A DNA stretch of 64,000 nt, from sequence record NC_100327.1. One strand, given 5' to 3'. Origin of the DNA: a phage. Positions 41,798 through 62,143 of this stretch are shown piece by piece; position 1 is the first letter of the stretch, and each line of letters opens with the position of its first letter. The position numbers and the translations under genes are program-made. The notes beneath the pieces were generated by a model. That model saw only the letters and a list, made by a program, of their open reading frames with translations, was not told where the DNA came from and ran no database searches.

Positions 41798-41799
41798 GT

Positions 41800-42654
41800 G
41801 TGGTATACTACAATGACAATGATAAAGATGCAGTTGCTTGGTTGAAGAATCTAATATCTTTAGGACTACTTCCTCAAGGCGAGGTGGATGATCGTTCTAT
41901 TACAGAGGTTACTGTAGAAGATCTTAGAGGTTTCACACAGTGGCACTTCTTCGCTGGCATAGGTGGATGGCCTTTGGCCTTGAAACTTGCTGGCATTCCA
42001 GAAACTTGGTCGGTATGCACAGGATCTCCGTGCTGCCAACCTTTCTCTCAAGCAGGTAAGCAACGTGGAAAATTTGACCCAAGACATCTTGCACCAACAT
42101 ACCTCCGGCTCGTTAAACAGCTTAAACCTGAGTTCATGTTTGGAGAGCAGGTTGCAAAAGCGATTGAATCCGGATGGCTCGACGATATGCAGAATGAAAT
42201 GGAAAACGCTGGTTACAGCTTCGGGGCTTCCATACTTAATGCTGCAATCCTCAACGCCCCGCACCGCCGCGAACGACTTTACTTCGGGGCAGTTAGCAAC
42301 GTGGTTAACCCCTACGGTAACTCAGGTAGGGTGCAGATCTCAGGAAGCGATGGAAAGGCGCAAGCAACAACGCTTAGCAACTGGCAGGAAGTCATTAAGT
42401 CCTGGGAATCTGTGGGAGCAGGTGAGGATGTATTACGGGTGTGGGAGCATACAAGACAGTATCTATGCCGAGACGGAAAATGGCGTAAACTTCCTGAACC
42501 CGGCATTCCCTTGTTGGTTGATGGGCTATCCACCCCAATGGGATTGTCTCGCCACAAAGGCTTCGGTAACGCCATAGTTCCTCAAATAGGGGCACTTTGG
42601 GTGCAAGAGTTTATGAAGTCAGTGGATGATTGTGTGAGAGGTGAGCATGGCTAA
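41800..42654 (+). CDS. DNA cytosine-C5 methyltransferase (orphan)
   Basis: Motif I FFAGIGG, motif IV GSPCCQPFSQAGK, RERLYFG block; start set at GTG 41800 with GGAGA RBS (track start is an upstream TTG). Confidence 0.6.
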   Translation: MVYYNDNDKDAVAWLKNLISLGLLPQGEVDDRSITEVTVEDLRGFTQWHFFAGIGGWPLALKLAGIPETWSVCTGSPCCQPFSQAGKQRGKFDPRHLAPTYLRLVKQLKPEFMFGEQVAKAIESGWLDDMQNEMENAGYSFGASILNAAILNAPHRRERLYFGAVSNVVNPYGNSGRVQISGSDGKAQATTLSNWQEVIKSWESVGAGEDVLRVWEHTRQYLCRDGKWRKLPEPGIPLLVDGLSTPMGLSRHKGFGNAIVPQIGALWVQEFMKSVDDCVRGEHG

Positions 42655-42937
42655 GAAACCTGTAAAAGAGAAATTTGATAAGACAGCTTTTGTATTCGAT
42701 ACACCTCTGGACGACATCATTAGAGGTATGCAATCATTGTATCGGAAGGCTGAATCTGAGCAGCTGTCGGAATCAGAACTTTACTGGCTCGGTTGGTGGG
42801 AGTTAAACCTGCCTAAAGCTGAAAGTTCTTCTCTGAGAACTGTTAAAACGTGCGCCCAAGAAAACGCTGCACTTGGAATCTACCACAAAAGGAAAAGATC
42901 AACAAAAAGCTCTCCAAGAAAGACTAAAAAGTCTTGA
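42641..42937 (+). CDS. hypothetical protein with basic C-terminus
   Basis: 98-aa ORF overlapping the methyltransferase stop. Confidence 0.3.
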   Translation: MSMAKKPVKEKFDKTAFVFDTPLDDIIRGMQSLYRKAESEQLSESELYWLGWWELNLPKAESSSLRTVKTCAQENAALGIYHKRKRSTKSSPRKTKKS

Positions 42938-42963
42938 CAAAAGTGTTATTAATCTGATATTAT
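42934..42963 (+). promoter_or_regulatory. sigma70-like promoter candidate
   Basis: TTGACA (42934-42939), 18-nt spacer, TATTAT (42958-42963), ~35 nt upstream of the 42997 start. Confidence 0.5.
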
Positions 42964-42996
42964 CAGTCAGATATTTATAAACTAGGAGAACTAGAC

Positions 42997-43305
42997 ATGC
43001 TTAAAATTTTTATTGTTGAAGATAAAGATATTGTCCAGTTGTATGCAAACGAGAATCATAAAGGTATTATTCTGAAGAAGGAAAGCAACCTCTATGAAAA
43101 CACAATTCAACCTGGTGATGTAATTAAGATCTGTGGCTATCTGCTACCAGACTCATTGATGAAAATAACCCACCACTGGGGGTCTAATCCGTTCCTTTTT
43201 GAAAAGTATTGGGATGTTGAGTCACTTATTGCAGAGAGTGATGATGCATTTCATTACAGCATCCAACCATCTTGCAGAATAACTAACAGGAGGGTCTTTG
43301 AGTAG
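42997..43305 (+). CDS. hypothetical protein
   Basis: 102-aa ORF with ATG, AGGAGA RBS and an upstream promoter-like element. Confidence 0.35.
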   Translation: MLKIFIVEDKDIVQLYANENHKGIILKKESNLYENTIQPGDVIKICGYLLPDSLMKITHHWGSNPFLFEKYWDVESLIAESDDAFHYSIQPSCRITNRRVFE

Positions 43306-44437
43306 AGAATATCCACTTATTGAGTCCATAGATTGTCTAGCTGATCTTCTTGAACCTGACGCTATAGTTTATTATGACTTCGATCAGGTTGCATATCAAG
43401 CTGCAGCAAGTTGTGAAAAAAGGACAATTGAGGTAACACACAAAGCCTCCGGACGTAAGAAGATGTTTAAAACACGAACAGAGTTCTGGGGGCGGCAGAA
43501 GAACACCGTTGGTGGTTGGTTAAAAGCTGAGAATACCAACCGTGAAGCTGCATGTAAAAAGGCTGGCAAGGAGTTTATTCCGTGGACACGAGAAGATTTC
43601 GATGTCTTGGATATCCAAACCCCTGATCCTGTAGAGAACTGCTTGCACACAATTAAGTGTAAAGCTAATGCAGTCCTTAATTATCTCGGTATTCCGGAAG
43701 ATCGGTGCGTGGGGGTACTTGGAGGCACAGGTAATTTCAGACTAGATCTTCCCATGCCGGAAAGATATAAAGCCAACCGTAACAATACTCTTCGACCACT
43801 GCTGCTTGGAGATGCAAGACAGTATCTCCAAAAGCAGTATAATGCTCAAGTGATCAACGGTATCGAGGCTGACGACTGGTTAGCTATCCAGCAATTTGAA
43901 GGTTGGAACCACTACCAAAAAACAGGTAAGTTCAACAAGTTTATTATCTCTATTGATAAGGACCAAAGAACACTACCGGGGCTTGTGTTCGATCCCATGC
44001 GAAACGATAAGGGAGATTTTGTAAGGGAAACCCCTATGCTGATCGATAACGGTATGGGGAACATCTTCATGAAGCCTAATGGAGAGGTTGGCGGTTACGG
44101 GATGCTGTTCTTCGGATACCAAATGCTGTGTGGTGACTCTGCTGACAACATCAAGCCGTATCAAGGACTTATCGGTAAGGGTAAGTTCGGGGATGCCTCA
44201 GCATTCTACCTACTGTCTCAGTGCAGCACTCCAAAGGAGATGTGGGTGGCTATTATTGATCAGTACAAGAAGTGGTTCCCGAAAGGTGTTGTTAAGTATA
44301 CTGACTTCAATGGTATTGATCGTAGAATTTCCGTAGGTCAATGGATGAGTATAATTTTTGACTGTTTGTATATGAAGCGGACATTTAATGACCAGACAAA
44401 ACTTGTTAACGTTCTTAGAAATGTTGGAGCAATCTGA
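43298..44437 (+). CDS. 5'-3' exonuclease / flap endonuclease (RNase H-like)
   Basis: TTG start with AGGAGG RBS; GIEADDWLA matches the conserved acidic motif of 5' nucleases. Confidence 0.55.
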   Translation: MSREYPLIESIDCLADLLEPDAIVYYDFDQVAYQAAASCEKRTIEVTHKASGRKKMFKTRTEFWGRQKNTVGGWLKAENTNREAACKKAGKEFIPWTREDFDVLDIQTPDPVENCLHTIKCKANAVLNYLGIPEDRCVGVLGGTGNFRLDLPMPERYKANRNNTLRPLLLGDARQYLQKQYNAQVINGIEADDWLAIQQFEGWNHYQKTGKFNKFIISIDKDQRTLPGLVFDPMRNDKGDFVRETPMLIDNGMGNIFMKPNGEVGGYGMLFFGYQMLCGDSADNIKPYQGLIGKGKFGDASAFYLLSQCSTPKEMWVAIIDQYKKWFPKGVVKYTDFNGIDRRISVGQWMSIIFDCLYMKRTFNDQTKLVNVLRNVGAI

Positions 44438-44769
44438 TGACTAAAAATGCTGTAGATAACGCAATTATGGAAGCTGTTTTTGAGGATGATCACACAACAG
44501 GGACACTTAAAACAAAAAATACATTCGTTGTTGCCACAGGTATGTGGCGGTTGTATGAAGATGACACCATTTCATACATCCTGTACACGGATGATTACGC
44601 AGATGACCGTGTATGGTCTGCTGTTTTAAAAGAGGATTGTGAGCTGATTGAGGGCGAGCGGTTATGCATGTTCACCAGTGTGGAAACAGATGTTAAGCTT
44701 TGCTCTCTCGTCTTGTTCAAAGATAAGGCTTATGCTCCTGATGAAGGAGAGGAGGACGAGGAAGCATGA
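44437..44769 (+). CDS. hypothetical acidic protein
   Basis: 110-aa ORF, translationally coupled to neighbours. Confidence 0.3.
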   Translation: MTKNAVDNAIMEAVFEDDHTTGTLKTKNTFVVATGMWRLYEDDTISYILYTDDYADDRVWSAVLKEDCELIEGERLCMFTSVETDVKLCSLVLFKDKAYAPDEGEEDEEA

Positions 44770-45395
44770 GAGAGCGTCTATTATCCATAGACCAGTCGTT
44801 GACACACACAGCTTGCGTTGTATGGGACGATGGAAAGCCTGTTCATAAGGTTGTGTTACGAACTCAAAGCTCATCTGCAAAAGAGAAGAAACCAGGGACG
44901 GTTTCTTTTGCAACAGCTGCTGAGCGTATTGACTGGATCTGCAAACAGGTCAGATATTACATCCACACGCACGGCGTTGACACCGTGGTTATGGAAGGGC
45001 TTTCCTTTGGATCACGCGGGGATGCCACACGCGAACTGGCTGGGTTGTTTTACGGTCTTGAAGTTATGCTTTGGGATGCTTTAGCTGATTGTGAAAATGA
45101 CGGCCTGTTTAAGGTCCACACCGTGACACCAACAACTGCCAAAAAGTTTGCTCGTAGTCATCTTCCTGAGGAACTTGCTTTTGAGGAGAAGAAAAAGCTT
45201 GACAAAAAGACAGGTAAAGAGCATACTGTGAAGAAACCTGTTACGATGGATAAAAAGTTGATGGTTAAGGCCTGCGAAGTATCTGAACCTGGGTTCCTAG
45301 ATGGGATCAATTTGGTACAAGGTAAGGCCGATCTCGCAGATGCTTATTGGATAGGCAGGGCGCATCTGGAGGGGTTATCGCAAAGCGTAAAATAA
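44766..45395 (+). CDS. RuvC-like Holliday junction resolvase
   Basis: N-terminal LSIDQSLTHTACVVWD and acidic residues in a RuvC-like arrangement; 209 aa. Confidence 0.5.
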   Translation: MRERLLSIDQSLTHTACVVWDDGKPVHKVVLRTQSSSAKEKKPGTVSFATAAERIDWICKQVRYYIHTHGVDTVVMEGLSFGSRGDATRELAGLFYGLEVMLWDALADCENDGLFKVHTVTPTTAKKFARSHLPEELAFEEKKKLDKKTGKEHTVKKPVTMDKKLMVKACEVSEPGFLDGINLVQGKADLADAYWIGRAHLEGLSQSVK

Positions 45396-45472
45396 GAAAG
45401 AAAGCTGTCAAAGCCCCCGTTCATAGCGGGTGGCTAAAAGATTCTAAGGACATAGCCAACTTTCGAAAAGAA

Positions 45473-45952
45473 TTGTCAGAGGAGCAGGATGGTCTTGATC
45501 CGATCTTGTGCGAGCCACTTCGTAAGCCTTGTTTAGATCATGATCATCTGACTGGTCGTTGCAGGGGTGTTTTGTCTCAGTGCACTAATACCTTTGAGGG
45601 GTATGTGCTTAAATACTGGATGAAATACTGTAACGAGTATACAGATTGCAGTTTATCAGAGGCGTTGCGCCGGATGGCTGACTATCTGGAGAAAGACTAC
45701 AGCGACTTCCCGCTCCACAAAAACTACAGAGATGATATGACAAAGTTCTTGAGGAGATGCTCTAAAGCTACGATTATTGCACGAGCAGAATCAGATCTCA
45801 ATCTTGTCATTAATCCAGAGTGCACCAAGCATGAGGCTATTGAGTCCTACATGCAGGAGTTTATAAAGAAAACTGAGGAGAGAGATTTCTATGGGGATGA
45901 AAAAGGTATTCAATCCTTGCGACTCAGTCCTGATCAGGATGAAATACCGTAA
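45473..45952 (+). CDS. endonuclease VII-like HNH nuclease; start uncertain (track ORF begins at 45347 inside the RuvC-like gene)
   Basis: CLDHDHLTGRCRGVLSQC matches the T4 endonuclease VII core as I recall it; no ATG in the 5' region, nearest in-frame TTG at 45473. Confidence 0.45.
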   Translation: MSEEQDGLDPILCEPLRKPCLDHDHLTGRCRGVLSQCTNTFEGYVLKYWMKYCNEYTDCSLSEALRRMADYLEKDYSDFPLHKNYRDDMTKFLRRCSKATIIARAESDLNLVINPECTKHEAIESYMQEFIKKTEERDFYGDEKGIQSLRLSPDQDEIP

Positions 45953-46112
45953 CTGGAAAGGTGTTGTTGCAGATCGCTGCGTTACTGAGCCTAATTTATG
46001 GTTTGGCTCTACAGAGTATCATAAAGAAGAGCAGTGGTTGATGCATGCCTTTGATGTAGACAAGGGCGAATATCGTGACTTCGCTTTAAAAGACATTCTT
46101 CAGTTTTACTAA
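45891..46112 (+). CDS. hypothetical protein
   Basis: 73-aa ORF. Confidence 0.25.
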   Translation: MGMKKVFNPCDSVLIRMKYRNWKGVVADRCVTEPNLWFGSTEYHKEEQWLMHAFDVDKGEYRDFALKDILQFY

Positions 46113-46118
46113 GGAATT

Positions 46119-47108
46119 TTGACGATGATGACAAAGTTAACTCTTGAGCAAATTTTAACACTAAAGCAGCAGGGATACACTAATAGACAAATTGCTCGTG
46201 AATTTTTAGGCCGTGAGTCACGTGAGAGTTGGATCCGACTACAGCTTAAACGTGCACAAGAGAATATGTCAGAGATTGTAGGAGAAGCAACGGAGCGCTT
46301 CCTTGAAGAACACAAAGGAGCTAAAGTTTGGGTGTATGATACAGAAACATCACCAACAAACGGCTGGTTCTTTGGGCACTATAAGACCAACATTCAAACC
46401 TGCGGTATTGAAATTATGCCCTATATGCTAACTTTCGCAGGTAAGTGGTTAGACAGTCCTAGTGTGGTTGACTGCGCTCTTCCCGATTACAAAATGTGGG
46501 ATGAGGATATTCACAATGACCTCGAATTGATTCAGGACTTGTGGTATTATCTGGATAAATGTGATGTCGCAGTAGCCCACAATTCAGGTTTTGACTGTGG
46601 GTGGGCAAACCAACGATTTGCATTTCACGGGTTGCCTCCAACAAGCCCATACAAAGAGGTTGACACCCTTAAAATGATCAAGAAGGCATTCCGTTTGAAT
46701 GCAAACACTTTGGAGTATGCATGCAAATACTTCCAACTTGCCCGACAGAAACTGATTGACCACACATTTGAAATGTGGATCAAGTGTGTTCATGGTGATC
46801 TTGAGGCGTTTAAACAGATGCGGGAGTACAATGTTGGTGATATCCTATCTCTGGAAGGCCTGTATTTGCTGGCACGCCCGTTTGCTAAGCAGCACCCCAA
46901 CATGTCATTGTACTACCAGGATGAGGAGCCAAAAGTTCGTTGCCCACGCTGCGGTGGAGAACACCTTCACGAGGAAGAAGCTTTGGCGTATACTCAACTG
47001 AGTGCATTTAAAACATATCGCTGCGAAGGTTGTGGATCTGTTGTTCGTGACCGTAACAACATCCGTACCAGAGAAGAAATGAAAAACACCCTGATTCAGA
47101 TAATCTAA
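46119..47108 (+). CDS. DEDD-family 3'-5' exonuclease with N-terminal HTH and C-terminal zinc ribbon
   Basis: Exo motifs VWVYDTETS and AHNSGFDCGW; C-terminal CPRCGG...CEGCG. Confidence 0.5.
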   Translation: MTMMTKLTLEQILTLKQQGYTNRQIAREFLGRESRESWIRLQLKRAQENMSEIVGEATERFLEEHKGAKVWVYDTETSPTNGWFFGHYKTNIQTCGIEIMPYMLTFAGKWLDSPSVVDCALPDYKMWDEDIHNDLELIQDLWYYLDKCDVAVAHNSGFDCGWANQRFAFHGLPPTSPYKEVDTLKMIKKAFRLNANTLEYACKYFQLARQKLIDHTFEMWIKCVHGDLEAFKQMREYNVGDILSLEGLYLLARPFAKQHPNMSLYYQDEEPKVRCPRCGGEHLHEEEALAYTQLSAFKTYRCEGCGSVVRDRNNIRTREEMKNTLIQII

Positions 47109-47117
47109 TCAAGTATA

Positions 47118-47145
47118 GGGAGGCTTGCGCCTCCCTTTTCCTTTT
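47118..47145 (+). terminator. rho-independent terminator
   Basis: gggaggc ttgc gcctccc hairpin followed by TTTTCCTTTT. Confidence 0.6.
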
Positions 47146-47154
47146 GGAGGCACT

Positions 47155-47973
47155 TTGAGCAAGAAAGAGTCCAACGACAAATATTACACAAACCCTGAGT
47201 ATGCAGAATATCTTGTTGGTAAAGTAAAAGATAAGTATGGAAATTGTGCATACGTTGAGCCTTCTGCTGGAAGGGGTTCTTTTTCAAAACTATTTTCAGA
47301 GATACTGTCTTACGATCTAGTACCAGATCCTGAATTTGAAGGACCAACACCGTGCATTCAGGCAAACTTCTTGGAGGTGCATCCCAAGGCAGATGTCTTC
47401 ATAGGTAACCCACCATTTGGCAAGAATTCATCTTTAGCTTGCAAATTCTTTAACCATTGTGCATCATTGCTAGAGCTTGGAGGGGCTATAGCCTTCATCT
47501 TGCCACGGACATTTGAAAAAATATTTTTTGCAAACAAACTGGACATGTCGATGCACCTTGTCTACAGTGAAAGGTGCCCTAAGAACTCGTTTCTACTTAA
47601 TGGCAAACCTTATGACGTGCCGTGTGTTTTCCAAATTTGGGAGAAAAAGGCGTGCAACAGGGATCCTGTAGAGATTGGGGAGAATAAGTTATTTTCTTTT
47701 AGCACTCCAGATGACTACGACTTCTGTGTAAGACGTGTTGGGTATAATGCTGGAAAAGTATTGGGGGAGGATGACCCAAAATCTGAAGAATCAACATATT
47801 TCATAAAATCTTTAGTTGACGGTGTTGACAGAGTGTTTGCTGAATGCTATTCTTCTTTTCAAGAAGAAGCAGGTAAGACTGCCGGAATGAAGAGTATAGG
47901 TAAGAAAGAACTACAATACATTTTGGAGACTAGGTATGATCAAAAGCATAGACTTGACCAAAGAACTTACTGA
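47155..47973 (+). CDS. DNA N6-adenine methyltransferase (NPPF catalytic motif)
   Basis: Motif I VEPSAGRGSF and motif IV IGNPPFG; start set at TTG 47155 after a GGAGG RBS (track start lies inside the terminator hairpin). Confidence 0.55.
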   Translation: MSKKESNDKYYTNPEYAEYLVGKVKDKYGNCAYVEPSAGRGSFSKLFSEILSYDLVPDPEFEGPTPCIQANFLEVHPKADVFIGNPPFGKNSSLACKFFNHCASLLELGGAIAFILPRTFEKIFFANKLDMSMHLVYSERCPKNSFLLNGKPYDVPCVFQIWEKKACNRDPVEIGENKLFSFSTPDDYDFCVRRVGYNAGKVLGEDDPKSEESTYFIKSLVDGVDRVFAECYSSFQEEAGKTAGMKSIGKKELQYILETRYDQKHRLDQRTY

Positions 47974-48394
47974 TGCAAAAGCTTTTGGTGAGACAGCGGT
48001 ACAAAGGGGGCAGGCGATGGGACTGGCACTACCTTTCGTATTAAAAGAGCACTTTACAGATTTTCAACTTATCAAGGGTGATAAGGGAATGCTTATCCTG
48101 GAGCATAAGTTGAGTAAGAAACGCTATAAAGTTGTTTTTAATTCTAAAGCTCCAACAAAACTGGGATTCAGAACTTACAATCTTAACCCATCCTACACTA
48201 AGGGTGTTGGAAGGGTAGAACAACAGCATTTCAGTGCCAGAGCTTCTTTAGCCCCTTTGATGCTAAATTTCTCAGGGGTGGCTTTAGGATACCTTGATAA
48301 GAAAAGAGTTCTTCATGTCCGTTTCACAGACTTTGTAACGCTTCTAGCCAACAACGAGGTTGATGAAAAGGGACGTGTAAAAACAAACTTCTAA
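47936..48394 (+). CDS. hypothetical protein
   Basis: 152-aa ORF. Confidence 0.3.
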   Translation: MIKSIDLTKELTDAKAFGETAVQRGQAMGLALPFVLKEHFTDFQLIKGDKGMLILEHKLSKKRYKVVFNSKAPTKLGFRTYNLNPSYTKGVGRVEQQHFSARASLAPLMLNFSGVALGYLDKKRVLHVRFTDFVTLLANNEVDEKGRVKTNF

Positions 48395-48409
48395 TAACGC
48401 ATAGTATGA

Positions 48410-48613
48410 TTGGAGAACGCAATGACACTAAAGTTAACAATTCCAGACAGCTTTTCAGAAGACTTTATCCCAGAAATGATGGGTAAGATGCGATCATTGC
48501 TTGATCAGATCGAGGAAGCTGTTTGGGAAGACGATGCTGTAGTGGCTAACGAGCTGGTAGATAAGTGTAAAAGTATTATTGATGCAGTTGAAGAATACCA
48601 CGGAGGTTTTTGA
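48410..48613 (+). CDS. hypothetical small acidic protein
   Basis: 67-aa ORF, coupled to the downstream kinase gene. Confidence 0.3.
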   Translation: MENAMTLKLTIPDSFSEDFIPEMMGKMRSLLDQIEEAVWEDDAVVANELVDKCKSIIDAVEEYHGGF

Positions 48614-49227
48614 TGGATATTATTGTTCTTAACGCCCCACCCAGCAGTGGTAAGGATCACATTGCAGATCTCTTGTTGGAAGCTATTCCTAACTCACACC
48701 ACCGTGAGGTTAAGGAGATGCTCTTCAGTGTGGCAATTAAGGCAGCTGGTGTAACTCCTCAACTCTGGAATGCACTTTATGACCGCCACTACAAAGAAGA
48801 GCCTTGCCCTTTCTTAATGATAGACGGCAAGCATGTTTCTCCGCGAGAATGGATGATCCATTGTAGTGAAAATCTGATTAAACCTATCTTTGGTGAAGAT
48901 GCTTTCGGTAAAGCCGCAGTCGCATCTTTGAAGAAAGATTTCCCTAAAGGTAAAGGGGTTGTTGTTTACTCCGATGGTGGATTCAAAGAGGAGCTGGCAT
49001 GCCTTAGCGAGTACGCGTACAGCACAGGTGGAGATCTGTTGTTGTTCCGTATTCACCGTGTCGGATATGACTGGGGAAATGATTCCAGAACCTATCTAAG
49101 TCTGGAAAAGAACGGAATAAAAGGAATTGAGTTCGATGTTGTAAACCCTGAAGGTGCACCTTGGGAATGTGCATCGGAGATTGTGTGCAAGTATATTGAT
49201 GCTAAAGAGGCCCAAGAAGAATGTTAA
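48610..49227 (+). CDS. deoxynucleoside monophosphate kinase-like P-loop kinase
   Basis: N-terminal P-loop VLNAPPSSGKD resembles phage dNMP kinases; nucleotide-metabolism context. Confidence 0.5.
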   Translation: MMDIIVLNAPPSSGKDHIADLLLEAIPNSHHREVKEMLFSVAIKAAGVTPQLWNALYDRHYKEEPCPFLMIDGKHVSPREWMIHCSENLIKPIFGEDAFGKAAVASLKKDFPKGKGVVVYSDGGFKEELACLSEYAYSTGGDLLLFRIHRVGYDWGNDSRTYLSLEKNGIKGIEFDVVNPEGAPWECASEIVCKYIDAKEAQEEC

Positions 49228-49814
49228 TCGGTATTGATGTAGATTTGACACTGGTAGATTCAGGAACAGCATGGTGGGAGTGGTTGGAGCGTTTATATGG
49301 TCCAGCCAGTAAGACAGTCACTAAACCTTCTAATGGGTTAATGTATTACGATCTGTCAAAGTATTGGCCTGATCGCCCCAAAGAAAACATCATAGGGCCT
49401 TTTGATTTCTGGAGTGACCCGTTCCTCTACGACTTTCTTAAGCCTGAAGAGGGGGCTATTGAGGTTATGAAAGATTTGGTGGCTCGTGGTCACAAGCTTG
49501 CATTTATCTCGGTATGCAAGAAAGGTCACCTTGCATCTAAATCAAGGTTCTTAAAGCGTTGGACTAGTGATTTTATGGATCTGGACGATCACACCCAGGG
49601 TCACGGCTTCTACGCCACGCATTTCAAGGGAAATGTGGCTGTAGATGTTATAATTGACGACAGGCATGAATACCTGAACCAATTCGCTTCACGCCCTGAA
49701 GTTATTAAAATCCTAAAAGATACGCCTTATGAGCAATTTGAGGAGTTAAAGGTCAGTGTTGACTATACCGCTAATAGCTGGTATAAAATAGGAAAGTTTT
49801 TAGAAGGTATTTGA
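49221..49814 (+). CDS. HAD-superfamily 5'(3')-nucleotidase-like phosphatase
   Basis: HAD motif I IDVDLT at the N-terminus; 197 aa. Confidence 0.45.
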   Translation: MLIGIDVDLTLVDSGTAWWEWLERLYGPASKTVTKPSNGLMYYDLSKYWPDRPKENIIGPFDFWSDPFLYDFLKPEEGAIEVMKDLVARGHKLAFISVCKKGHLASKSRFLKRWTSDFMDLDDHTQGHGFYATHFKGNVAVDVIIDDRHEYLNQFASRPEVIKILKDTPYEQFEELKVSVDYTANSWYKIGKFLEGI

Positions 49815-49815
49815 A

Positions 49816-50999: not shown

Positions 51000-51000
51000 T

Positions 51001-51027
51001 CCTATCACAGCGATAGGTAACTTTTGT
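51001..51027 (+). terminator. terminator-like hairpin after thyX
   Basis: cctatc acagc gatagg hairpin followed by a T-rich run. Confidence 0.45.
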
Positions 51028-51028
51028 G

Positions 51029-51057: not shown

Positions 51058-51058
51058 A

Positions 51059-54112: not shown

Positions 54113-54119
54113 TTTTAAA

Positions 54120-54138
54120 GGGGCTTCGGCCCCATTTT
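54120..54138 (+). terminator. intercistronic hairpin / attenuator between nrdA and nrdB
   Basis: ggggc ttcg gcccc hairpin followed by ATTTT. Confidence 0.45.
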
Positions 54139-54150
54139 AGAGGTAGAATA

Positions 54151-55239
54151 ATGGCTGTATTTAATGCTGAGAACACCGCTCATAAAACTGGTGACTATCC
54201 GCTGTTTCTGGGACAGCAAATGGGTATGTACGACTCTATCAACAAAAAATATCCACAACTGTTTGAACTATACAAAAAACAAAAAGAGCAAGATTGGGCA
54301 GAGGATGAAGTGGATTTGTCGCAATCTATTTCAGATTTTGTAACATGCTCAAAGTCAACTTATGACGTGATGGTGCAGACCTTGATGTGGCAATGGGAGG
54401 CTGATAGCGTTGCGGCAAGATCGATCATCTGCCTCTTTTCACCATTCATCACTAATAGTGAGCTTTTCACTCTATTGATGAAACAGTCAGAGATTGAAGT
54501 TCTTCACGCACTAACTTACTCAGAGATTGTTAGACAATGCCTCCCCAATGCCCGTGAGATTATAGAAGAGATTCAGGAAAACCAAAACGTTCTGAGCAGA
54601 TCTGGCGTTATTGTCAAATACATGCAAGAGCTTGAGGATATTGGTGCAAAATACCGACTGGATCCTTCTAGTGTTGAAGAAGATATTGTGCGGAAATGCA
54701 TTCTTAGAGCGCTTTTTGCACTTTTAGCCCTGGAAAGTATTGAGTTTATTGCAAGTTTTGCATGCACTTTCGCAGTAGCTGAACAGGGTATTTTTGTTCA
54801 GGTGGCGCAGCTTGTTCAAAAAATCATGCTTGACGAAATGCTACATTCGAAAGGTGATTTTGCCATCATTGATATCTTGCTTAACGATCCCGCATGGGAG
54901 AAAAGCTTCCTGGAGATAAAAGGGGAGTTAAAAGAGATTCTTGATGAAGTACGAACCAAAGAGTACGGTTGGAGTGACTATATTTTCAGCGAAGGAAGAG
55001 CGATTATAGGTCTTAACTCACCGTTGCTTAAAGAATGGGTTGACTATAACTGTTCACCGATTTATGATTACTACGACATCGACAAAGACTTTGTGCCGCC
55101 AACAAAGGACCCGCTACCGTTTATGCAGGTGTGGATGAAACCTTCATTGCAACAGACGGCGAACCAAGAAATGTCGAACACTGACTACCGCGTCAACACA
55201 ACTGTTAACGACGCTGAAGAAGAAATTTGGGAGTTTTAA
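54151..55239 (+). CDS. nrdB: ribonucleotide reductase class I beta subunit NrdB
   Basis: Start at ATG 54151 with GAGG RBS (track start is an upstream TTG); ~360 aa immediately after nrdA. Confidence 0.75.
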   Translation: MAVFNAENTAHKTGDYPLFLGQQMGMYDSINKKYPQLFELYKKQKEQDWAEDEVDLSQSISDFVTCSKSTYDVMVQTLMWQWEADSVAARSIICLFSPFITNSELFTLLMKQSEIEVLHALTYSEIVRQCLPNAREIIEEIQENQNVLSRSGVIVKYMQELEDIGAKYRLDPSSVEEDIVRKCILRALFALLALESIEFIASFACTFAVAEQGIFVQVAQLVQKIMLDEMLHSKGDFAIIDILLNDPAWEKSFLEIKGELKEILDEVRTKEYGWSDYIFSEGRAIIGLNSPLLKEWVDYNCSPIYDYYDIDKDFVPPTKDPLPFMQVWMKPSLQQTANQEMSNTDYRVNTTVNDAEEEIWEF

Positions 55240-55242
55240 TAT

Positions 55243-55521
55243 ATGAGCTGCGAAAAATCTTTTTTCATCATCATTTACGGTAAGGATAACTGCCCACATT
55301 GTGTCAGAGCAAAAGAATTTGCAATCAGCAAAGGTCTGCCTTTTGTATATAAGACACTTGGCGAGGGATACACAAAAGAAGAGCTTATTGAGAAGTGTAG
55401 TCCAATCGTCCCCAGAACGTTGCCGCAGATCTTCTTAGAAAGCGATCTTGACAGTATCCATATAGGCGGTGCCGACGATTTCATCTCTTTTGTTAAGAAT
55501 GGTTTTGGAGAGAAAAAGTGA
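55243..55521 (+). CDS. glutaredoxin (NrdH/Grx-like)
   Basis: 92 aa with CPHC active site (YGKDNCPHCVRAKEF). Confidence 0.7.
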   Translation: MSCEKSFFIIIYGKDNCPHCVRAKEFAISKGLPFVYKTLGEGYTKEELIEKCSPIVPRTLPQIFLESDLDSIHIGGADDFISFVKNGFGEKK

Positions 55522-57641
55522 AAGTTGTAAAACGGGACGGTAGAGAAGAGTTCTATAACGGAATTAAGGTGATCAAGGCGGCAGAGTCCGCCTTACTTGA
55601 GTCTGGACATACTGAAGAAGAAGCTTACCGGATCGCTTGTGCGGTTAATGAAGTTGTTGCTAACAATCTACCAACCGACCAGTGCACGATCTCTGTAAAA
55701 AATATCCATATCCTTGTTGAAGATGCTCTTATGGATATGGGTTTAAAATGTGCAGCCAGAGAATACATCCAGTATAGACAGACAAGAGATAATAACAGAG
55801 AGGCAGGTGGAAAACTGCTTGCAGATATTAGTGGCTTCTTGGATCGAACTTGTGATGAATTTACAAAAGAAAACGCAAATAAGCCTACCAATCATGTACA
55901 CACTCATCGTGACCTGCTTGCAGGCATCCTTAGCAAACACCTTGCATCAACACAGATCCTGCCAGACCGTGTCTCAGAAGAGCACAATAAAGGCTTCATC
56001 CATGTGCATGATCTTGACTACTTGATCAGTCCGTTAACAAACTGTTGTTTGGTAAATTATCCAGATATGTTGGAAAACGGATTCAACATTGGTAACGCCC
56101 ATGTCAGTAAGCCGAAGTCAATAGGGGTTGCAACAACAATCCTTAGCCAAATCTCTAGTGCGGTAGCTAGTGCTCAATATGGGGGTCAGACTATGAGCCA
56201 TATTGATCATTATCTGGCACAGTATGCTGAGGCGACTTATGAGAAGAACCTTAAATTTTGCCAGGAACATTGGTTGCCAGATGCTGAGACTGTTGCAATG
56301 CAGATGACAGATAAAGACGTATTTGACAGCATGCAGACTTTACTCTATCAAATCAATACGTTAACTTCTGTCAACGGGCAAACCCCATTCATCACATTAA
56401 GTTTAGGTCTGGACACCTCAGTCTTTGGTAGAATGATTACCAAAAACTACTTGAAAGTCCACAAAATGGGTCTTGGTGAAGAACGTATCACACCTGTGTT
56501 CCCTAAAGTGTTGTTCTTCCTAGAAGAGGGTGTCAACATGAACCCTGGAGATCCTAACTATGATTTGAAACGATTAGCTCTGGAATGCTCTGCAGAGCGG
56601 ATTTATCCTGACTTTGTTTCTGTTCCACTAAATCGTAAAGTGACAGGCTCGACAGATGGTAAAGTAACGAGCATGGGTTGCCGGAGTTTTCTTAGCAAAT
56701 ACAATGACTTGGAAACAGGCGAGGAGAAATACCTTGGCAGATTTAACTTAGGCGTTGTTAGCCTTAATCTGCCAATGATTGCGGCAAAAGCTAAAACGGA
56801 AGGTGTTGATTTCTTTGCAGTTCTTGACGAATACCTAGATCTTGCATACGAGGCTCACCTTGTAAGGGTTGATCGTCTAAAAGGGACAAAGGCAGGGCAG
56901 AACCCTATCATGTGGTGTGAAGGCGCTCTTGCTCGCCTGGGCCCTGAAGAGAGTATTGATAAACTCTTCTACGACGGGTACGCTTCCATCAGTATTGGGT
57001 ATATTGGTGTGTATGAAACCTGTCAGATTTTGGGCAGGGAGGGTGACAAGGCTTTAGCTCTTGGAATACTTCAGCACATGAGAGATGCTTGTGAGAGATA
57101 CAAGAAGGAAAGTAGACTAGCGTTTAGCTTGTACGGCACCCCTTCTGAGAGTCTATGCTATAAAGCTGCAACCTGTCTGGATCGTGAATATCCTGAAGTG
57201 TTGAAGCACGAGCATGAATATCTCACCAACAGTTTCCATCAGCCAGTATGGATCAATAGCTCTCCTTTTGATAAGTGGGAGTATGAGGAAGGTTTTGCTA
57301 TGATCTCCTCTGGTGGCAACATCGGATACGTAGAGACACCAAATCTGAAAAACAACTTAGATGCTTTGGAAGCTCTTGTTGATTTCGGATATAAACACAT
57401 TATGTATTTTGGTATCAACCAGCCTGTGGATAAATGTCTCAAGTGTGGTTTCTCTGGTGAGTTCAGTGCAACAGCTAAAGGCTTTGTATGCCCAGAGTGT
57501 GGAAACCATGAAGAGGGAACGATCAGCGTAATTCGACGTGTGTCTGGATACCTTTCCAGTCCTAACTCTCGTCCTTACAATAAAGGTAAGCAAGCGGAAG
57601 TTATCGAGCGAGTTAAGCACTACGGAAGTTGTGGTTGCTGA
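55518..57641 (+). CDS. nrdD: anaerobic ribonucleoside-triphosphate reductase NrdD
   Basis: 707 aa; C-terminal zinc ribbon (CLKCGF...CPECG) and glycyl-radical motif RRVSGY. Confidence 0.85.
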   Translation: MKVVKRDGREEFYNGIKVIKAAESALLESGHTEEEAYRIACAVNEVVANNLPTDQCTISVKNIHILVEDALMDMGLKCAAREYIQYRQTRDNNREAGGKLLADISGFLDRTCDEFTKENANKPTNHVHTHRDLLAGILSKHLASTQILPDRVSEEHNKGFIHVHDLDYLISPLTNCCLVNYPDMLENGFNIGNAHVSKPKSIGVATTILSQISSAVASAQYGGQTMSHIDHYLAQYAEATYEKNLKFCQEHWLPDAETVAMQMTDKDVFDSMQTLLYQINTLTSVNGQTPFITLSLGLDTSVFGRMITKNYLKVHKMGLGEERITPVFPKVLFFLEEGVNMNPGDPNYDLKRLALECSAERIYPDFVSVPLNRKVTGSTDGKVTSMGCRSFLSKYNDLETGEEKYLGRFNLGVVSLNLPMIAAKAKTEGVDFFAVLDEYLDLAYEAHLVRVDRLKGTKAGQNPIMWCEGALARLGPEESIDKLFYDGYASISIGYIGVYETCQILGREGDKALALGILQHMRDACERYKKESRLAFSLYGTPSESLCYKAATCLDREYPEVLKHEHEYLTNSFHQPVWINSSPFDKWEYEEGFAMISSGGNIGYVETPNLKNNLDALEALVDFGYKHIMYFGINQPVDKCLKCGFSGEFSATAKGFVCPECGNHEEGTISVIRRVSGYLSSPNSRPYNKGKQAEVIERVKHYGSCGC

Positions 57642-57710
57642 TACTTGACAAAAGCCACAAGGATGTGGCATATTATTGACACACAGTGAGCTAGGAGTAG
57701 GAGGTGCAGT

Positions 57711-57827
57711 ATGTCTACAGGTATTTATAAAATTTGCAAGTGCGGCTGTCATTGCAATCTTCGTTGGTGCAAGGCACTGGACGATTTTATTTGGCATTGC
57801 CCTGAATGCGATGCGGAGTACTTATAA
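57711..57827 (+). CDS. small Cys-rich (zinc-ribbon-like) protein, 38 aa
   Basis: ATG 7 nt after AGGAGG; MSTGIYKICKCGCHCNLRWCKALDDFIWHCPECDAEYL; not in the ORF track because it is short. Confidence 0.35.
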   Translation: MSTGIYKICKCGCHCNLRWCKALDDFIWHCPECDAEYL

Positions 57828-57978
57828 GCATAAGGGGTCGAAATGCGGAAATCTATCAAGAAAATCAAGATAAAATTGTTAGCACTGAAGCGTAAGTATA
57901 AAAAGTTATACGGCTTCATCAAATGGACTTTTATAAGTTTATCTTGAATAGAAGCACACCACAGAAGAGAGGTTCCTT

Positions 57979-58215
57979 ATGATAGGTGTCTGTGTAAAAG
58001 CTAACAGATGGTTTACATTCGGTAAGGATTACGAAATTATCTTTCATTCGGACAGAGCCACAACAGTAGAAAGTAATGATGGGTGCTACTGGTTCGTTAG
58101 TTACCAGGGTGATGGGTATTATAGATCTACTGATTCCAGAGGGGAAGAAGCTGTTTTCTTAGATAGAGCTTATTGTGGGCCTGAATATCCCTATCTCAAA
58201 GAGGGTAAGGCATGA
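57979..58215 (+). CDS. hypothetical protein
   Basis: 78-aa ORF coupled to nrdG. Confidence 0.3.
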   Translation: MIGVCVKANRWFTFGKDYEIIFHSDRATTVESNDGCYWFVSYQGDGYYRSTDSRGEEAVFLDRAYCGPEYPYLKEGKA

Positions 58216-58685
58216 ATGTTGTCAATATTATAGAGTGTAGCATGGTTGACGGCCCAGGTATCAGGACAACAGTGTTCTGTTCTGGTTGTCCACATCACTG
58301 CGTCGGTTGCCAAAACAAAAGTGTTTGGTCCCCCGCTAAAGGGGAACCGTTAACAAATGACACAATCGAGAGCATACTTAGCTCTATAGAACCAAACCAT
58401 ATTACCGGCGTTACATTATGCGGTGGAGAGCCTTTAGCACCTTACAATATTGATGGTATGTATTCAATCATTTGCGCTATCCGTGAACGCTTCGGCAACA
58501 CAAAAACTATCTGGGTGTACACAGGGTATTTGTTTGAAGAAGTCCCCGATTACATTAAAGATAGTGTTGATTACATTATGGACGGTAAGTACGAAAAAGA
58601 TAACCCCACCAAAAAACCCTTTAGAGGCAGTGATAACCAAAGAATGTTTAAAAAGGTAGCAGATGGTTGGGTTCAGGTTGACTAA
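58212..58685 (+). CDS. nrdG: anaerobic ribonucleotide reductase activating protein NrdG (radical SAM)
   Basis: Cys cluster CSGCPHHCVGC near the N-terminus; ~157 aa; adjacent to nrdD. Confidence 0.75.
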   Translation: MNVVNIIECSMVDGPGIRTTVFCSGCPHHCVGCQNKSVWSPAKGEPLTNDTIESILSSIEPNHITGVTLCGGEPLAPYNIDGMYSIICAIRERFGNTKTIWVYTGYLFEEVPDYIKDSVDYIMDGKYEKDNPTKKPFRGSDNQRMFKKVADGWVQVD

Positions 58686-58688
58686 TCG

Positions 58689-58718
58689 TTGACAAAGCTT
58701 TGTTAAGTCGGTTATAAT
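58689..58718 (+). promoter_or_regulatory. sigma70-like promoter candidate
   Basis: TTGACA (58689-58694), 18-nt spacer, TATAAT (58713-58718). Confidence 0.55.
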
Positions 58719-58747
58719 TGTCGTAATGAAAGCAGAGGAGGTGCCAA

Positions 58748-58861
58748 ATGGCTAAAAAAGCCTTGAAGAAGGCGTACAAGAAAGAGATTGCGCTTGAGCT
58801 TAAGAAAAAACACAAGCGTGAAAATAAACATCATGAAGATGAAGAGGGGGTGCAACAGTGA
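58748..58861 (+). CDS. small basic protein, 37 aa
   Basis: ATG after GAGGAGG RBS and a consensus promoter; MAKKALKKAYKKEIALELKKKHKRENKHHEDEEGVQQ. Confidence 0.35.
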   Translation: MAKKALKKAYKKEIALELKKKHKRENKHHEDEEGVQQ

Positions 58862-59208
58862 CACAAGAACGTATCGATTTGGCTAATAAGTTTGTAGATC
58901 TCATTTTGCCACGGTTAGTTACTCAACATGCAGATGCTATTTCTACTAATCTTGATGGCTTACGCCTAATGCTGAATCGCACAGATGACCCTCGTATTCG
59001 GGCTGATTTAGAAGCCTCTGCCAACAAACTGGAAAAGTTCTTGCAAGTAGACACGCAAGAAGCCTTGCACAAGATTATGGTGGAAGGTTTCTCTAAAGAA
59101 TTTACCATTAAAGAGCTTAAGGAGCTGATCCACCAAGAAGAGATGAATATCCGAGTTCAGGCTGTTGCAAGCAGCATGGAAGCGGCTATTGAAAAACTGT
59201 TGCAGTAA
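58858..59208 (+). CDS. hypothetical protein
   Basis: 116-aa ORF with GTG start overlapping the small ORF stop. Confidence 0.3.
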   Translation: MTQERIDLANKFVDLILPRLVTQHADAISTNLDGLRLMLNRTDDPRIRADLEASANKLEKFLQVDTQEALHKIMVEGFSKEFTIKELKELIHQEEMNIRVQAVASSMEAAIEKLLQ

Positions 59209-59246
59209 AAGTACTTGGCACATCTCAATCTGAAAGGAGTCCCAAC

Positions 59247-60035
59247 ATGGGTCGAGCTAAAGAAACAAAACGCATGCGTGATGAAGCTAGAGAGGCTCGC
59301 AAATCTGATCGCCTGCGTAAGGCTGCTGAGAAATTTGCTGACGAAAGAGAGCACACCGCTCCAGCTCTCCGACCAATGAATAAGAAGCAGCAAAAGTATC
59401 TTGATTATCTAGGGTCACGTAAGATTATTATTGTAAACGGTGTGTTTGGATCCGGTAAGACATTTATGGCATCTGCATATGCAGGTGATCTTCTGCGTAA
59501 GAACGAGATTGATAAGATCATTGTTGCACGTCCTTACGTCCAGACAGGAAAGACTTCAGGATTTAAACCCGGAAATGCAATGCAGAAACTGTGGCCCTAT
59601 CTTCGAAGCATGATGGACACGATTTGTCGTCGTGTTGGCAAAGGTGCTTTTACCGCAATGCTGGGAGACGGTCAGAACAGTCGTATCGAGATTTGTGAAG
59701 TTGAAAGCATTCGTGGTCGTAGTTTCGATGAGCGATGCTTTGTCCTGATTGACGAGGCACAGCAAACTAACCCTGAAGAAATGTTGTCAATTATCACAAG
59801 GATCTCTGATCAAGCCACCCTTGTAATTATGGGTGATAATAGCCAACGTGACATCCCTGGTAAATCTGGCCTCGCATGGGTGACGGATTTCTTTACTCGT
59901 CATCCAGATCCTGAGGTTGGAATGATTAGCTTTGATAGTCCAGACGATGTCGTTCGTTCCGGGTTGGGTCGTCAGATTGCACTCAATCTTATTGAAGATC
60001 GTGCAAATCATATTTGGACCCCTGTTTCCGAGTAA
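59247..60035 (+). CDS. phoH: PhoH-like ATPase
   Basis: Walker A GVFGSGKT, LIDEAQ and IMGDNSQRD blocks in PhoH-like order. Confidence 0.8.
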   Translation: MGRAKETKRMRDEAREARKSDRLRKAAEKFADEREHTAPALRPMNKKQQKYLDYLGSRKIIIVNGVFGSGKTFMASAYAGDLLRKNEIDKIIVARPYVQTGKTSGFKPGNAMQKLWPYLRSMMDTICRRVGKGAFTAMLGDGQNSRIEICEVESIRGRSFDERCFVLIDEAQQTNPEEMLSIITRISDQATLVIMGDNSQRDIPGKSGLAWVTDFFTRHPDPEVGMISFDSPDDVVRSGLGRQIALNLIEDRANHIWTPVSE

Positions 60036-60080
60036 TACAGAAGGGTGGTTATTCCACCCTTAAAATATCTAAAACAGTTG

Positions 60081-60109
60081 TTGACAAACAGGTAAGCTTT
60101 AGATATTAT
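60081..60109 (+). promoter_or_regulatory. sigma70-like promoter candidate
   Basis: TTGACA (60081-60086), 17-nt spacer, TATTAT (60104-60109); preceded by a hairpin at 60042-60060. Confidence 0.5.
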
Positions 60110-60139
60110 CATCGGACAAAACAAGGAGAAGGAGATAGT

Positions 60140-60451
60140 ATGGCTACAATACAAGAGAGACTGAATAAAATATACTGCCTGTTCGTCTACAACGGTGAGA
60201 CAATTTTGGCAAATAAAGGATCCAAGAATGTGTGGATCAAGGACAGTGGTGGTAATATAATCAACTTAGCGTTGCTACGTGAGCGCCGACACAGATTCTT
60301 TATCGAGTCTCGAATTATTGAAAGCAGCACCTGCTACAGAACAGGCGATAAAGTAATTGTTGACAATGATACGTGGTATGTGGTAGACTGGCAATCATTG
60401 AGTTGTGATGCTTCTGACAATCGTAAGTATTCCATAGTGATTGCTAAATAA
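60140..60451 (+). CDS. hypothetical protein
   Basis: Track ORF 60014..60451 trimmed to the first ATG (MATIQERLNK) after the promoter and GGAGAAGGAG RBS. Confidence 0.35.
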   Translation: MATIQERLNKIYCLFVYNGETILANKGSKNVWIKDSGGNIINLALLRERRHRFFIESRIIESSTCYRTGDKVIVDNDTWYVVDWQSLSCDASDNRKYSIVIAK

Positions 60452-60511
60452 AGGTAAATGTGAATCAGGTTTAAATAAATAGCTTTCAACTTCCAATATT
60501 AAGGATTTCTC

Positions 60512-61558
60512 ATGAATTTAACACCTCGCAGCACCATGGTACACGGCATGAAAGAAAAACAGAACGGTTTCGAACCTATGAGTAATAAAATGTTTGGTAT
60601 GCCGGGCGGTATCATGGAAACATACAGCTACCCAACACCTGTTGTTGACCACGTTCTTTATATCGACGATTTGGAAGACCTGCAGGATCATATGTCTCGT
60701 CTGCAGACGATCCGTATGGCTCAGCCGGAAGAAAGCATTCGGGTGATCATCAATAGCCCTGGTGGTTGCGTGCACATTGCAATGGCTTATCTACAGGCAT
60801 TCCGCGAGTCTCAGGCAAGCGTTGTTGCACATGCTGAAGGGATGTGCTGCTCTGCGGGAACAATCTTATGGCTGGGTTGTAAAGAACGCACTGTGGCTCC
60901 GGACACAGAATTTATGTTCCACTACTATCAAGGTGGCACTTATGGTAACGGTGTGAACATGAATACTCAGGTCAGCTACTGGAAAAAACGTTTTGAACGC
61001 CTGATCGAAAAATACTACGGTGGGGTGCTGACAGAAGATGAGATCGCATCCATCACAGCTGGTGGTGAAGTGTGGTTGGACGGAGAGGAGCTGGCAGCTC
61101 GAACTGGAGCCATCATTCTGGATGAAGGTAACATACAGCGCATCCAGAACGGACAAAAACCTAAAAAGCTTCTGGCAAAAGGTGATGAAGGCGTGTTAGG
61201 TGAAGCAGGTCTTCCTGAGATTCACCAGTGCACCTCTTTAGATGAGCTAGTTCATGCTGTTGAATCTGCGAAAGCGGTTGGTTCGAAAGGTGATGTTCAC
61301 ACTGTGTTCCTAAATCTGCAGATGGAAAGTGGTGAGACCATTAAGATTGCCTTAGGTGAGATTACCTCAGAAGATCTGCAGCGATTCTCTGTCGTTGAAC
61401 TTCAAGACATTCTGTCCCAATTGAAGACAACCCTGAACGGCGGTGAAGAGGTTAAGGTAAAAGATAAGACTCGCAAGCGTCTGGTGGACAATATTATTAA
61501 AACAGCAAAAGAGCTCAATGAAAAAATCCTGGGTGCAGGAATTGTCGAAGAAGCTTAA
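60512..61558 (+). CDS. ClpP-like serine protease with C-terminal extension
   Basis: ClpP-type blocks INSPGG, AEGMCCSAGT and EFMFH, followed by a ~170-aa helical C-terminal region. Confidence 0.5.
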   Translation: MNLTPRSTMVHGMKEKQNGFEPMSNKMFGMPGGIMETYSYPTPVVDHVLYIDDLEDLQDHMSRLQTIRMAQPEESIRVIINSPGGCVHIAMAYLQAFRESQASVVAHAEGMCCSAGTILWLGCKERTVAPDTEFMFHYYQGGTYGNGVNMNTQVSYWKKRFERLIEKYYGGVLTEDEIASITAGGEVWLDGEELAARTGAIILDEGNIQRIQNGQKPKKLLAKGDEGVLGEAGLPEIHQCTSLDELVHAVESAKAVGSKGDVHTVFLNLQMESGETIKIALGEITSEDLQRFSVVELQDILSQLKTTLNGGEEVKVKDKTRKRLVDNIIKTAKELNEKILGAGIVEEA

Positions 61559-61570
61559 ACATTAATTCTA

Positions 61571-61594
61571 AAGCCCTCTTCGGAGGGCTTTTAT
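61571..61594 (+). terminator. rho-independent terminator
   Basis: agccctc ttcg gagggct hairpin followed by TTTTAT. Confidence 0.6.
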
Positions 61595-61609
61595 GATCTG
61601 GAGATTTGC

Positions 61610-62143
61610 ATGACTTGTGCTAGAAAACCTGATGAACAACGTAACGCTTACGATGAGTATGTGACACCGGAGTGGTGTGCAGAAGGGCTGTATGACCTTA
61701 TTCCGTTCCCAGAAGACTGGACCTATTTAGAGCCTTGCAGGAATAGTGCCTCAGGTGTGTTCTACTCACGTATGCCGTTAGGATCTGCATGGGGAGAAAT
61801 CCAAGAAGGTGTTGACTATCTGAATACAGAATACAACCATGTTGACTGTATTATCACCAACCCACCATACAGTTTGGCTCGTGAGTTTGTAGACAAGGCG
61901 TTGAAAGATGCTGACGTAGTTATTATGCTTTTGCGTCTTAATTTTCTGGAAAGCAAAGCCAGATTTGAATGGTGGCTTGATAATGCACCTACCACTGTGA
62001 TCACAATATCTAAGCGTCCATCTTTTCAATCAAATGGCAGAACTGACGGGCAAGCATATGCATATTTTGTCTGGGATAAGAAAAACCGTTTAGACTTGCC
62101 GCCATTTATGTGGTTGGCACCTCCAGAGGTAGACCTGAAATGA
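61610..62143 (+). CDS. phage Dam-like DNA N6-adenine methyltransferase (small, NPPY)
   Basis: 177 aa with YVTPEW and IITNPPYS motifs. Confidence 0.55.
   Translation: MTCARKPDEQRNAYDEYVTPEWCAEGLYDLIPFPEDWTYLEPCRNSASGVFYSRMPLGSAWGEIQEGVDYLNTEYNHVDCIITNPPYSLAREFVDKALKDADVVIMLLRLNFLESKARFEWWLDNAPTTVITISKRPSFQSNGRTDGQAYAYFVWDKKNRLDLPPFMWLAPPEVDLK

Follow-up and report, generated by a model that had tools for sequence, protein, structure and literature searches.

Phage methyltransferases that lack a functional restriction partner have been described as a general phenomenon under the concept of orphan methyltransferases (Murphy et al. 2013). Among the Vequintavirinae, Pectobacterium phage CB7 and phage BME3 likewise have multiple orphan methyltransferases with Dam-type activity and, in a patchy manner, also a cytosine methylase, the best structural match of which is EhMeth. 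The 64,000-nucleotide (nt) stretch of phage DNA analysed here (sequence record NC_100327.1; referred to below as the window) is one more instance of the orphan concept, from which it differs in nothing essential. It encodes a cytosine-C5 methyltransferase and two N6-adenine methyltransferases of 272 and 177 residues, the larger one of the gamma order and the smaller one Dam-like (Table 1). That rV5-like phages carry several annotated orphan methyltransferases is ordinary and has been reported before, and the sensing of the GATC methyltransferase by retrons is already characterised in the literature. The motif order of the C5 enzyme, common to a phage and prophage family of about 5000 relatives, appears to be modestly new, and so would be the coupling of a putative degenerate endonuclease homologue to the 272-residue enzyme, which belongs to the core of the genus.

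Over positions 41000–63000, the window was found to be 99.9% identical at full length to the Escherichia phages CarlMeissner (BASEL Bas48, MZ501054) and pangalan, and the same region has 96–99% identity to over 100 further phages of the rV5-like genus Vequintavirus; judged from this identity, the source of the window is an rV5-like Vequintavirus of E. coli. All three open reading frames (ORFs) listed in the original prediction are present on the plus strand and contain the motifs quoted there, each being preceded by a GGAG ribosome-binding site 7–9 nt 5' of its start codon (GTG at 41800, TTG at 47155 and ATG at 61610). Their family matches are far beyond chance, with E-values of 4e-60 to phrog_363 for the C5 protein, 2.5e-129 to phrog_5172 for the 272-residue protein and 8e-67 to phrog_799 for the 177-residue protein. 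In the annotation of CarlMeissner they correspond to bas48_0207 ('putative C5-cytosine-methyltransferase') and to bas48_0198 and bas48_0176 (each a 'putative N6 adenine methyltransferase'), and the two adenine enzymes are labelled gp096 and gp118 in rV5. It is clear that all three genes encode real DNA methyltransferases and that none of them has an intact cognate endonuclease, as is characteristic of orphan phage methyltransferases. No restriction endonuclease is annotated in the entire 137.6-kb CarlMeissner genome, and scanning of the neighbouring genes with Pfam and PHROGs revealed no adjacent cognate endonuclease with an intact catalytic site, as would define a type II system. The claimed absence of an adjacent restriction endonuclease thus holds for an intact enzyme but not for nuclease-like genes in general, because an HNH gene abuts the C5 gene and a predicted degenerate endonuclease homologue overlaps the 272-residue gene. 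Similarly, the number of three methyltransferases is correct for the window, whereas five are annotated in the full CarlMeissner genome, two of them outside the window. The overall explanation favoured here, which is considered fairly probable, is that three functional methyltransferases would modify the phage's own replicating DNA.

Table 1. Positions of the methyltransferase genes and associated features (window coordinates, unless MZ501054 is given).
Feature	Location	Strand	Remarks
HNH (homing-type) endonuclease	41333..41797	+	phrog_5200, E 7e-72; directly upstream of C5 gene
870-bp insertion relative to rV5/Bas51 (13 bp there)	41777..42646		blastn break-points, alignment; carries C5 gene and its own ribosome-binding site
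Accessory cytosine-C5 DNA methyltransferase, 284 aa, phrog_363	41800..42654	+	PCCQ for PPCQ, EQV for ENV
Gamma-order N6-adenine DNA methyltransferase, 272 aa, phrog_5172	47155..47973	+	genus core; GTAC candidate
152-aa ORF, phrog_9938, rV5 gp097	47936..48394	+	remote homologue of putative PD-(D/E)xK endonuclease family
Minimal Dam-like N6-adenine DNA methyltransferase, 177 aa, phrog_799	61610..62143	+	GATC by orthology; retron trigger
Orthologue of Bas51 'putative glycosidase'	63368..63901		
PF01555 beta-class N6/N4 enzyme, 441 aa, bas48_0070	MZ501054 64234-65559		outside window; Pfam
254-aa 'Dcm-like C5 cytosine methyltransferase'	MZ501054 66820-67584		outside window; annotation

The activity data come from a sister phage, Bas51, which was identified as phage WalterGehring and the genome of which was used here for ortholog comparison and site counts; the nanopore sequencing in that work called N6-methyladenine (6mA, m6A) only. 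All Bas51 mutants escaping the retrons Asa1 and Squ1 were mutated in the N6-adenine methyltransferase (Nakamura et al. 2025, PMC12548924), the engineered substitutions D69G, D79G and T83P in bas51_0176 abolished retron defence, and expression of bas51_0176 was toxic in E. coli (PMC12548924). Native nanopore sequencing of Bas51 yielded a GATC logo that was almost gone in the T83P mutant (PMC12548924). The m6A calls amounted to 1405 at GATC, 509 at GTAC and 576 at other positions in the wild type, and to 35, 511 and 349, respectively, in T83P (PMC12548924, Fig 4f source data). The WalterGehring genome contains 703 GATC sites, i.e. 1406 adenines, and 258 GTAC sites, i.e. 516 adenines. Because the calls nearly equal these adenine counts (1405/1406 for GATC and 509–511/516 for GTAC), both motifs are essentially fully methylated in Bas51. 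Self-methylation at a consistent motif, as had been proposed from the window alone, is thus borne out for 6mA in the published Bas51 data, and the opposite outcome, i.e. 6mA at no consistent motif, is not what these data show. Approximately 230 of the other calls depend on the Dam-like enzyme (576 decreasing to 349), which suggests off-target activity; the remaining 349 might stem from noise or belong to a third motif.

The 177-residue protein of the window is identical to bas51_0176 at 176 of 177 positions, the sole difference being V174A; residues D69, D79 and T83 are all kept, and in both phages the gene follows that of a ClpP-like protease. In more than 108 vequintavirus records the protein is at least 98.9% identical. 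By orthology, the enzyme acts like Dam on GATC and would methylate the adenine of every such site, as the orthologue with one residue different does; both GATC methylation and the triggering of Asa1 and Squ1 were measured for the Bas51 enzyme. Its catalytic tetrapeptide NPPY is found in the motif ITNPPYSLA. As judged from profile scores, this functionally Dam-like enzyme lies outside the curated Dam families: it remained below the cut-offs of PF05869 (19.2 vs 28.1 bits) and TIGR01712 (16.1 vs 97 bits), and a match to PF02086 was absent. With the Dam enzymes of E. coli and T4 (PF02086) and those of the T1/HP1 type (PF05869, TIGR01712) it would have the product Gm6ATC in common, as follows from the Bas51 orthologue. 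In contrast to classical Dam, it consists of merely 177 residues with hardly any separate recognition domain, its motif order is gamma-like, and it has the similarity to phrog_799 in common with the 272-residue enzyme. A relative of solved structure was detected by sequence for neither of the two adenine enzymes. Literature searches on vequintavirus methylomes (methylation/nanopore; rV5 methyltransferase/GTAC) returned nothing besides the Bas51 paper.

Conservation of this degree may also be seen as a sign that the core adenine enzymes mainly serve transactions of the phage DNA, either avoiding MutH nicking and mismatch repair or marking the DNA for packaging or regulation. Both enzymes belong to the genus core and are near-invariant (at least 98.9% identity in more than 108 genomes; 270/272 and 176/177 residues between species, i.e. 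between the window and Bas51), and their genes are located amid those for replication and nucleotide metabolism. Host Dam evidently does not keep pace, as the T83P phage grown in E. coli was almost without GATC methylation, and GATC is unavoided in CarlMeissner, with an observed/expected ratio of 0.99 compared with 0.76 in a 50-kb sample of E. coli K-12. The methyltransferase point mutants of Bas51, however, are viable and plate like the wild type on retron-free hosts, so that the enzyme is dispensable under laboratory conditions. A main role in DNA transactions is therefore regarded as possible, if somewhat doubtful.

The 272-residue enzyme carries the motif IGNPPFGKN. In 30 homologues, motif X (DQFYT) is followed by motif I (EPSAGxGSF), motif IV (GNPPFGK) and a conserved C-terminal domain, and the window enzyme, reading DKYYT…EPSAGRGSF…IGNPPFGK, has the same gamma-class order; its predicted fold resembles gamma-class enzymes over both the catalytic and the recognition domains. 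It stays below the curated thresholds of PF07669 Eco57I (15.5 vs 25.3 bits) and PF02384 N6_Mtase, and no match was found in NCBIfam. The X-I-IV order, the NPPF tetrapeptide and the C-terminal recognition domain are shared with M.TaqI, M.BseCI, CamA and the methyltransferase domain of MmeI, but in comparison with that group the window enzyme is far smaller and falls under all Pfam thresholds. Since 511 GTAC calls persist in T83P, GTAC methylation is independent of the 177-residue enzyme. The target of the 272-residue enzyme is most likely a short palindrome, and M.HpyAXII is a precedent for a TaqI-like enzyme producing GTm6AC; as the maker of the GTAC mark, the 272-residue enzyme competes, at about even odds, with a second candidate, the 441-residue beta-class enzyme. 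With 262 sites in CarlMeissner (observed/expected 0.60, z -10.7), GTAC ranks first by z-score among the avoided 4-bp palindromes of that genome, the ratio being 0.51 in the window and 0.85 in the E. coli K-12 sample.

The ORF of 152 residues that overlaps the 3' end of the 272-residue gene by 38 nt is identical in Bas51 (152/152) and has no Pfam match. Its family is tiny, as both word-indexed and exhaustive searches among 1.8 billion representatives yielded nine proteins in all. The surroundings of the relatives of the 272-residue enzyme were examined at 138 loci from bacterial genomes and viral contigs, many of the latter being metagenome-assembled genomes (MAGs) of giant viruses. At 62 of these loci, one of three small gene families was located within 400 bp, in all relative orders and orientations: RE1 at 34 loci, XF at 20 and the family of the window ORF at eight, the last in either gene order. 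As every order and orientation of the partners occurs, the pattern is that of type II restriction-modification pairs. RE1 proteins (~180–260 residues) have an invariant D…SxK and KIDSKxQRRLQCS, whereas XF proteins (~160 residues) have DGR…E…D…(D/E)xK…PSNxIGxGR; both are found in bacteria, phages and giant-virus MAGs (loci L009–L146, e.g. L037:4789-5442 and L015:4782-5273). Neither has a sequence relative in Pfam or the PDB, and judged from their motifs and neighbourhood they are probably unrecognised restriction-enzyme families. An attempt to assign GTAC to the 272-residue enzyme by way of these bacterial partners led no further, as RE1 and XF show no detectable link to the GTAC-specific PabI/HpyAXII family.

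Comparison of a seven-member alignment of the 152-residue family with XF by hhalign gave a probability of 94.9% (E 4.5e-8, 104 columns), compared with 0.4% for the reversed control, and one bridging ORF (L070) was matched by the hidden Markov models (HMMs) of both families. A relationship to RE1 was rejected (hhalign probability 0.1%, HMM score -1). At the positions of the XF catalytic residues, the subfamily of the window has P, a variable E/Q/D and K-V-x, which points to an endonuclease-family homologue with its catalytic residues replaced. Because this overlapping neighbour is an endonuclease homologue without catalytic residues, the 272-residue enzyme appears to be the survivor of a former restriction-modification pair, the endonuclease partner of which would have lost its canonical active site yet stayed conserved.

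The same neighbourhood was also considered as a live restriction-modification pair, in which the small protein would cleave host DNA that lacks the methylation, at the site protected by the methyltransferase, in a chlorovirus-like manner. The two genes are translationally coupled and kept across the genus, the family to which the neighbour shows homology occurs paired with such methyltransferases in bacteria and giant-virus contigs, and GTAC is both fully methylated in Bas51 DNA and strongly avoided in the phage, more so than in the host sample. On the other hand, the E…D…(D/E)xK positions are not retained in the 152-residue subfamily, the protein has no relative in Pfam or the PDB, and GTAC is shared between two candidate methyltransferases. 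The protein would then have to be a divergent member of the endonuclease family that might use a non-canonical active site, with GTAC possibly as its site; both this and the live pair as a whole are judged unlikely. If true, they would mean host-DNA degradation of the chlorovirus type in a common group of coliphages.

The C5 protein of the window scored 73.3 bits with Pfam PF00145 (cut-off 22, E 3e-20), with only profile positions 62–163 of 324 being aligned. It did not reach the cut-off of TIGR00675 (dcm; 55.7 vs 100.65 bits), in the alignment of which residue 2 corresponds to profile position 24, so that it starts at motif II. All catalytic motifs are present, namely FFAGIGG (as HFFAGIGGW) for motif I, GSPCCQPFS for IV, FGEQV for VI, HRRERLYF for VIII and GFGNAIVP for X, and they represent variants, not losses. 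The replacement of asparagine by glutamine in the ENV-like motif, to which the original prediction had drawn attention, is really there in FGEQV, but it is nothing peculiar to this enzyme, as EQV is invariant in all 28 aligned family members, with the glutamate retained. Codons 42028–42036 (P77-C78-C79) give SPCCQPFS instead of the family's SPPCQPFS; the invariant Cys79 is kept, the change is found also in an 80%-identical relative, and this variant seems to be tolerated, as suggested by the ratio of nonsynonymous to synonymous substitution rates (dN/dS) described below. The predicted structure has the fold of C5 methyltransferases, and the enzyme has this fold, the catalytic cysteine and motifs I, IV, VI, VIII and X in common with M.HhaI, M.HaeIII and E. 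coli Dcm. That it might instead methylate cytosines of tRNA in the manner of Dnmt2, with the host tRNAs or the six tRNAs of the phage as substrates, is considered highly improbable. Its family phrog_363 comprises 4957 matches at E <= 1e-10, from phages and prophages.

Motifs I and IV of the C5 protein are only 18 residues apart, and residues 34–68 of M.HhaI, which harbour motifs II and III, are without counterpart there. The first 40 residues of the window protein (VYYNDNDKDAVAWLKNL…GEVDDRSITEV) resemble this missing segment, and in all 28 aligned family members motifs II–III stand in front of motif I, i.e. the canonical order from I to X is not followed. The N-terminal segment was moved in silico between motifs I and IV, and the resulting sequences were rescored on PF00145. 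The window protein gained from 73.0 bits in the native form to 95.5 when de-permuted, compared with 82.3 for the shuffled control, 77.4 with the segment reversed and 73.5 with the segment deleted. The corresponding native, de-permuted and shuffled scores were 61.6, 82.5 and 73.3 bits for P0039, 78.0, 99.5 and 82.6 for P0083, and 70.8, 92.0 and 82.7 for P0018. The de-permuted form thus beat the shuffled one in all four proteins, the alignments now being contiguous over profile positions 5–163, and motifs I, II and IV of the de-permuted window protein could be aligned colinearly with those of E. coli Dcm. According to a survey from 2018, motifs IX–X come first in every natural permuted C5 methyltransferase known (PMC5944983). 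In contrast to these circular permutants of the M.BssHII type, the window enzyme has the II–III segment before motif I, and from the alignments the order II-III-I-IV…X of phrog_363 appears to differ from the IX–X-first type and not to be a circular permutation. A split or intron-interrupted gene as the explanation for the seeming lack of motifs II and III was rejected, since all 28 homologues in the alignment, which come from many types of phage, have the arrangement in common. When the first 48 residues were searched as a single sequence against those of the PDB, no significant match was obtained.

The cassette of 870 bp that carries the C5 gene has a GC content of 0.483, compared with 0.436 for the window. 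In rV5 and Bas51, the HNH gene (rV5 gp087) directly abuts the homologue of gp088, with no C5 gene between them. Among phage records, the gene was found at 99% identity or more in CarlMeissner, pangalan and vB_Eco_Alma only, and its next relatives there are at most 58% identical and belong to other phage groups. A copy of 80% identity occupies the syntenic position in a 56.8-kb metagenomic contig (L153) of a more distant vequintavirus-like phage, with the gene order ligase … HNH … C5 methyltransferase … 5'-exonuclease … DnaQ-like exonuclease kept and an HNH homologue of 60% identity upstream; dN/dS between the two C5 genes is 0.22. The patchy spread, the syntenic 80%-identical copy and this ratio together indicate a gene exchanged among relatives and under purifying selection. 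As far as synteny can tell, the cassette would be common to these lineages at a fixed position and not a random insertion. The HNH endonuclease was rejected as the restriction partner of the C5 enzyme, since most relatives without the C5 gene have the same HNH gene in the same position, as do rV5 and Bas51. The C5 enzyme would thus be a recently exchanged accessory cassette that presumably adds 5-methylcytosine (5mC) at a short motif, and Bas48 and Bas51 form a natural control pair for it.

What the three specificities would bring to the phage has to be judged against the BASEL study, in which the Vequintavirinae stood out by their susceptibility to each of the six restriction systems of the panel (two type I, two type II, i.e. 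EcoRI and EcoRV, and two type III). The combination of specificities had been put forward originally as a broad anti-restriction strategy by which many host systems would be evaded, an idea that is commonly stated for related phages and in line with which several methyltransferases of differing chemistry are encoded in one genome and self-methylation is complete at two 4-bp motifs in the sister phage. A broad shield is, however, contradicted by the BASEL susceptibility. Moreover, two 4-bp motifs and one C5 motif cover few restriction specificities, and the C5 gene is missing from most of the genus. The genome, instead, strongly avoids many GC-rich 6-bp palindromes, which represents a passive strategy: GGCGCC, GCTAGC, CCGCGG, CTCGAG, GCCGGC and CGGCCG are absent from CarlMeissner, and CGATCG, TGGCCA and GGGCCC nearly so. 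A broad strategy is for these reasons given little probability. Protection can only be motif-specific, that is, directed at enzymes cutting at the methylated motifs, and such protection is plausible for DpnII/MboI or for RsaI and enzymes of the PabI family. The net effect would be shielding only from enzymes for which either m6A at GATC or GTAC or the 5mC mark prevents cleavage.

The costs would include sensing by retrons and, in principle, methyl-dependent nucleases; being sensed by the retrons Asa1 and Squ1, the Dam-like enzyme is a liability as well. A methyltransferase can thus be a liability to its phage, and the number of methyltransferases is no predictor of restriction resistance, the group being among the most restriction-sensitive coliphages.

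Several points weigh against the explanation by three functional methyltransferases that modify the phage's own DNA and protect it narrowly. No enzyme of the BASEL panel cuts at GATC or GTAC, so that narrow protection is a prediction. The GTAC mark may be made by either the 272-residue enzyme or the 441-residue PF01555 enzyme (bas48_0070/bas51_0070). The change of proline to cysteine in the catalytic Pro-Cys dipeptide could impair the C5 activity, and the target-recognition region of the C5 enzyme was modelled at a predicted local distance difference test (pLDDT) score below 50. As for the presumed origin of the 272-residue enzyme, XF as a nuclease rests on its motif pattern and gene neighbourhood, with no Pfam or PDB relative.

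With respect to the remaining gene content, the 254-residue 'Dcm-like' protein encoded outside the window had zero matches in Pfam or NCBIfam. Gene orientation in the window changes from minus to plus at ~35 kb, and the GC skew switches in step. The orthologue of the 'putative glycosidase' of Bas51 follows the Dam-like gene 1.2 kb further downstream.

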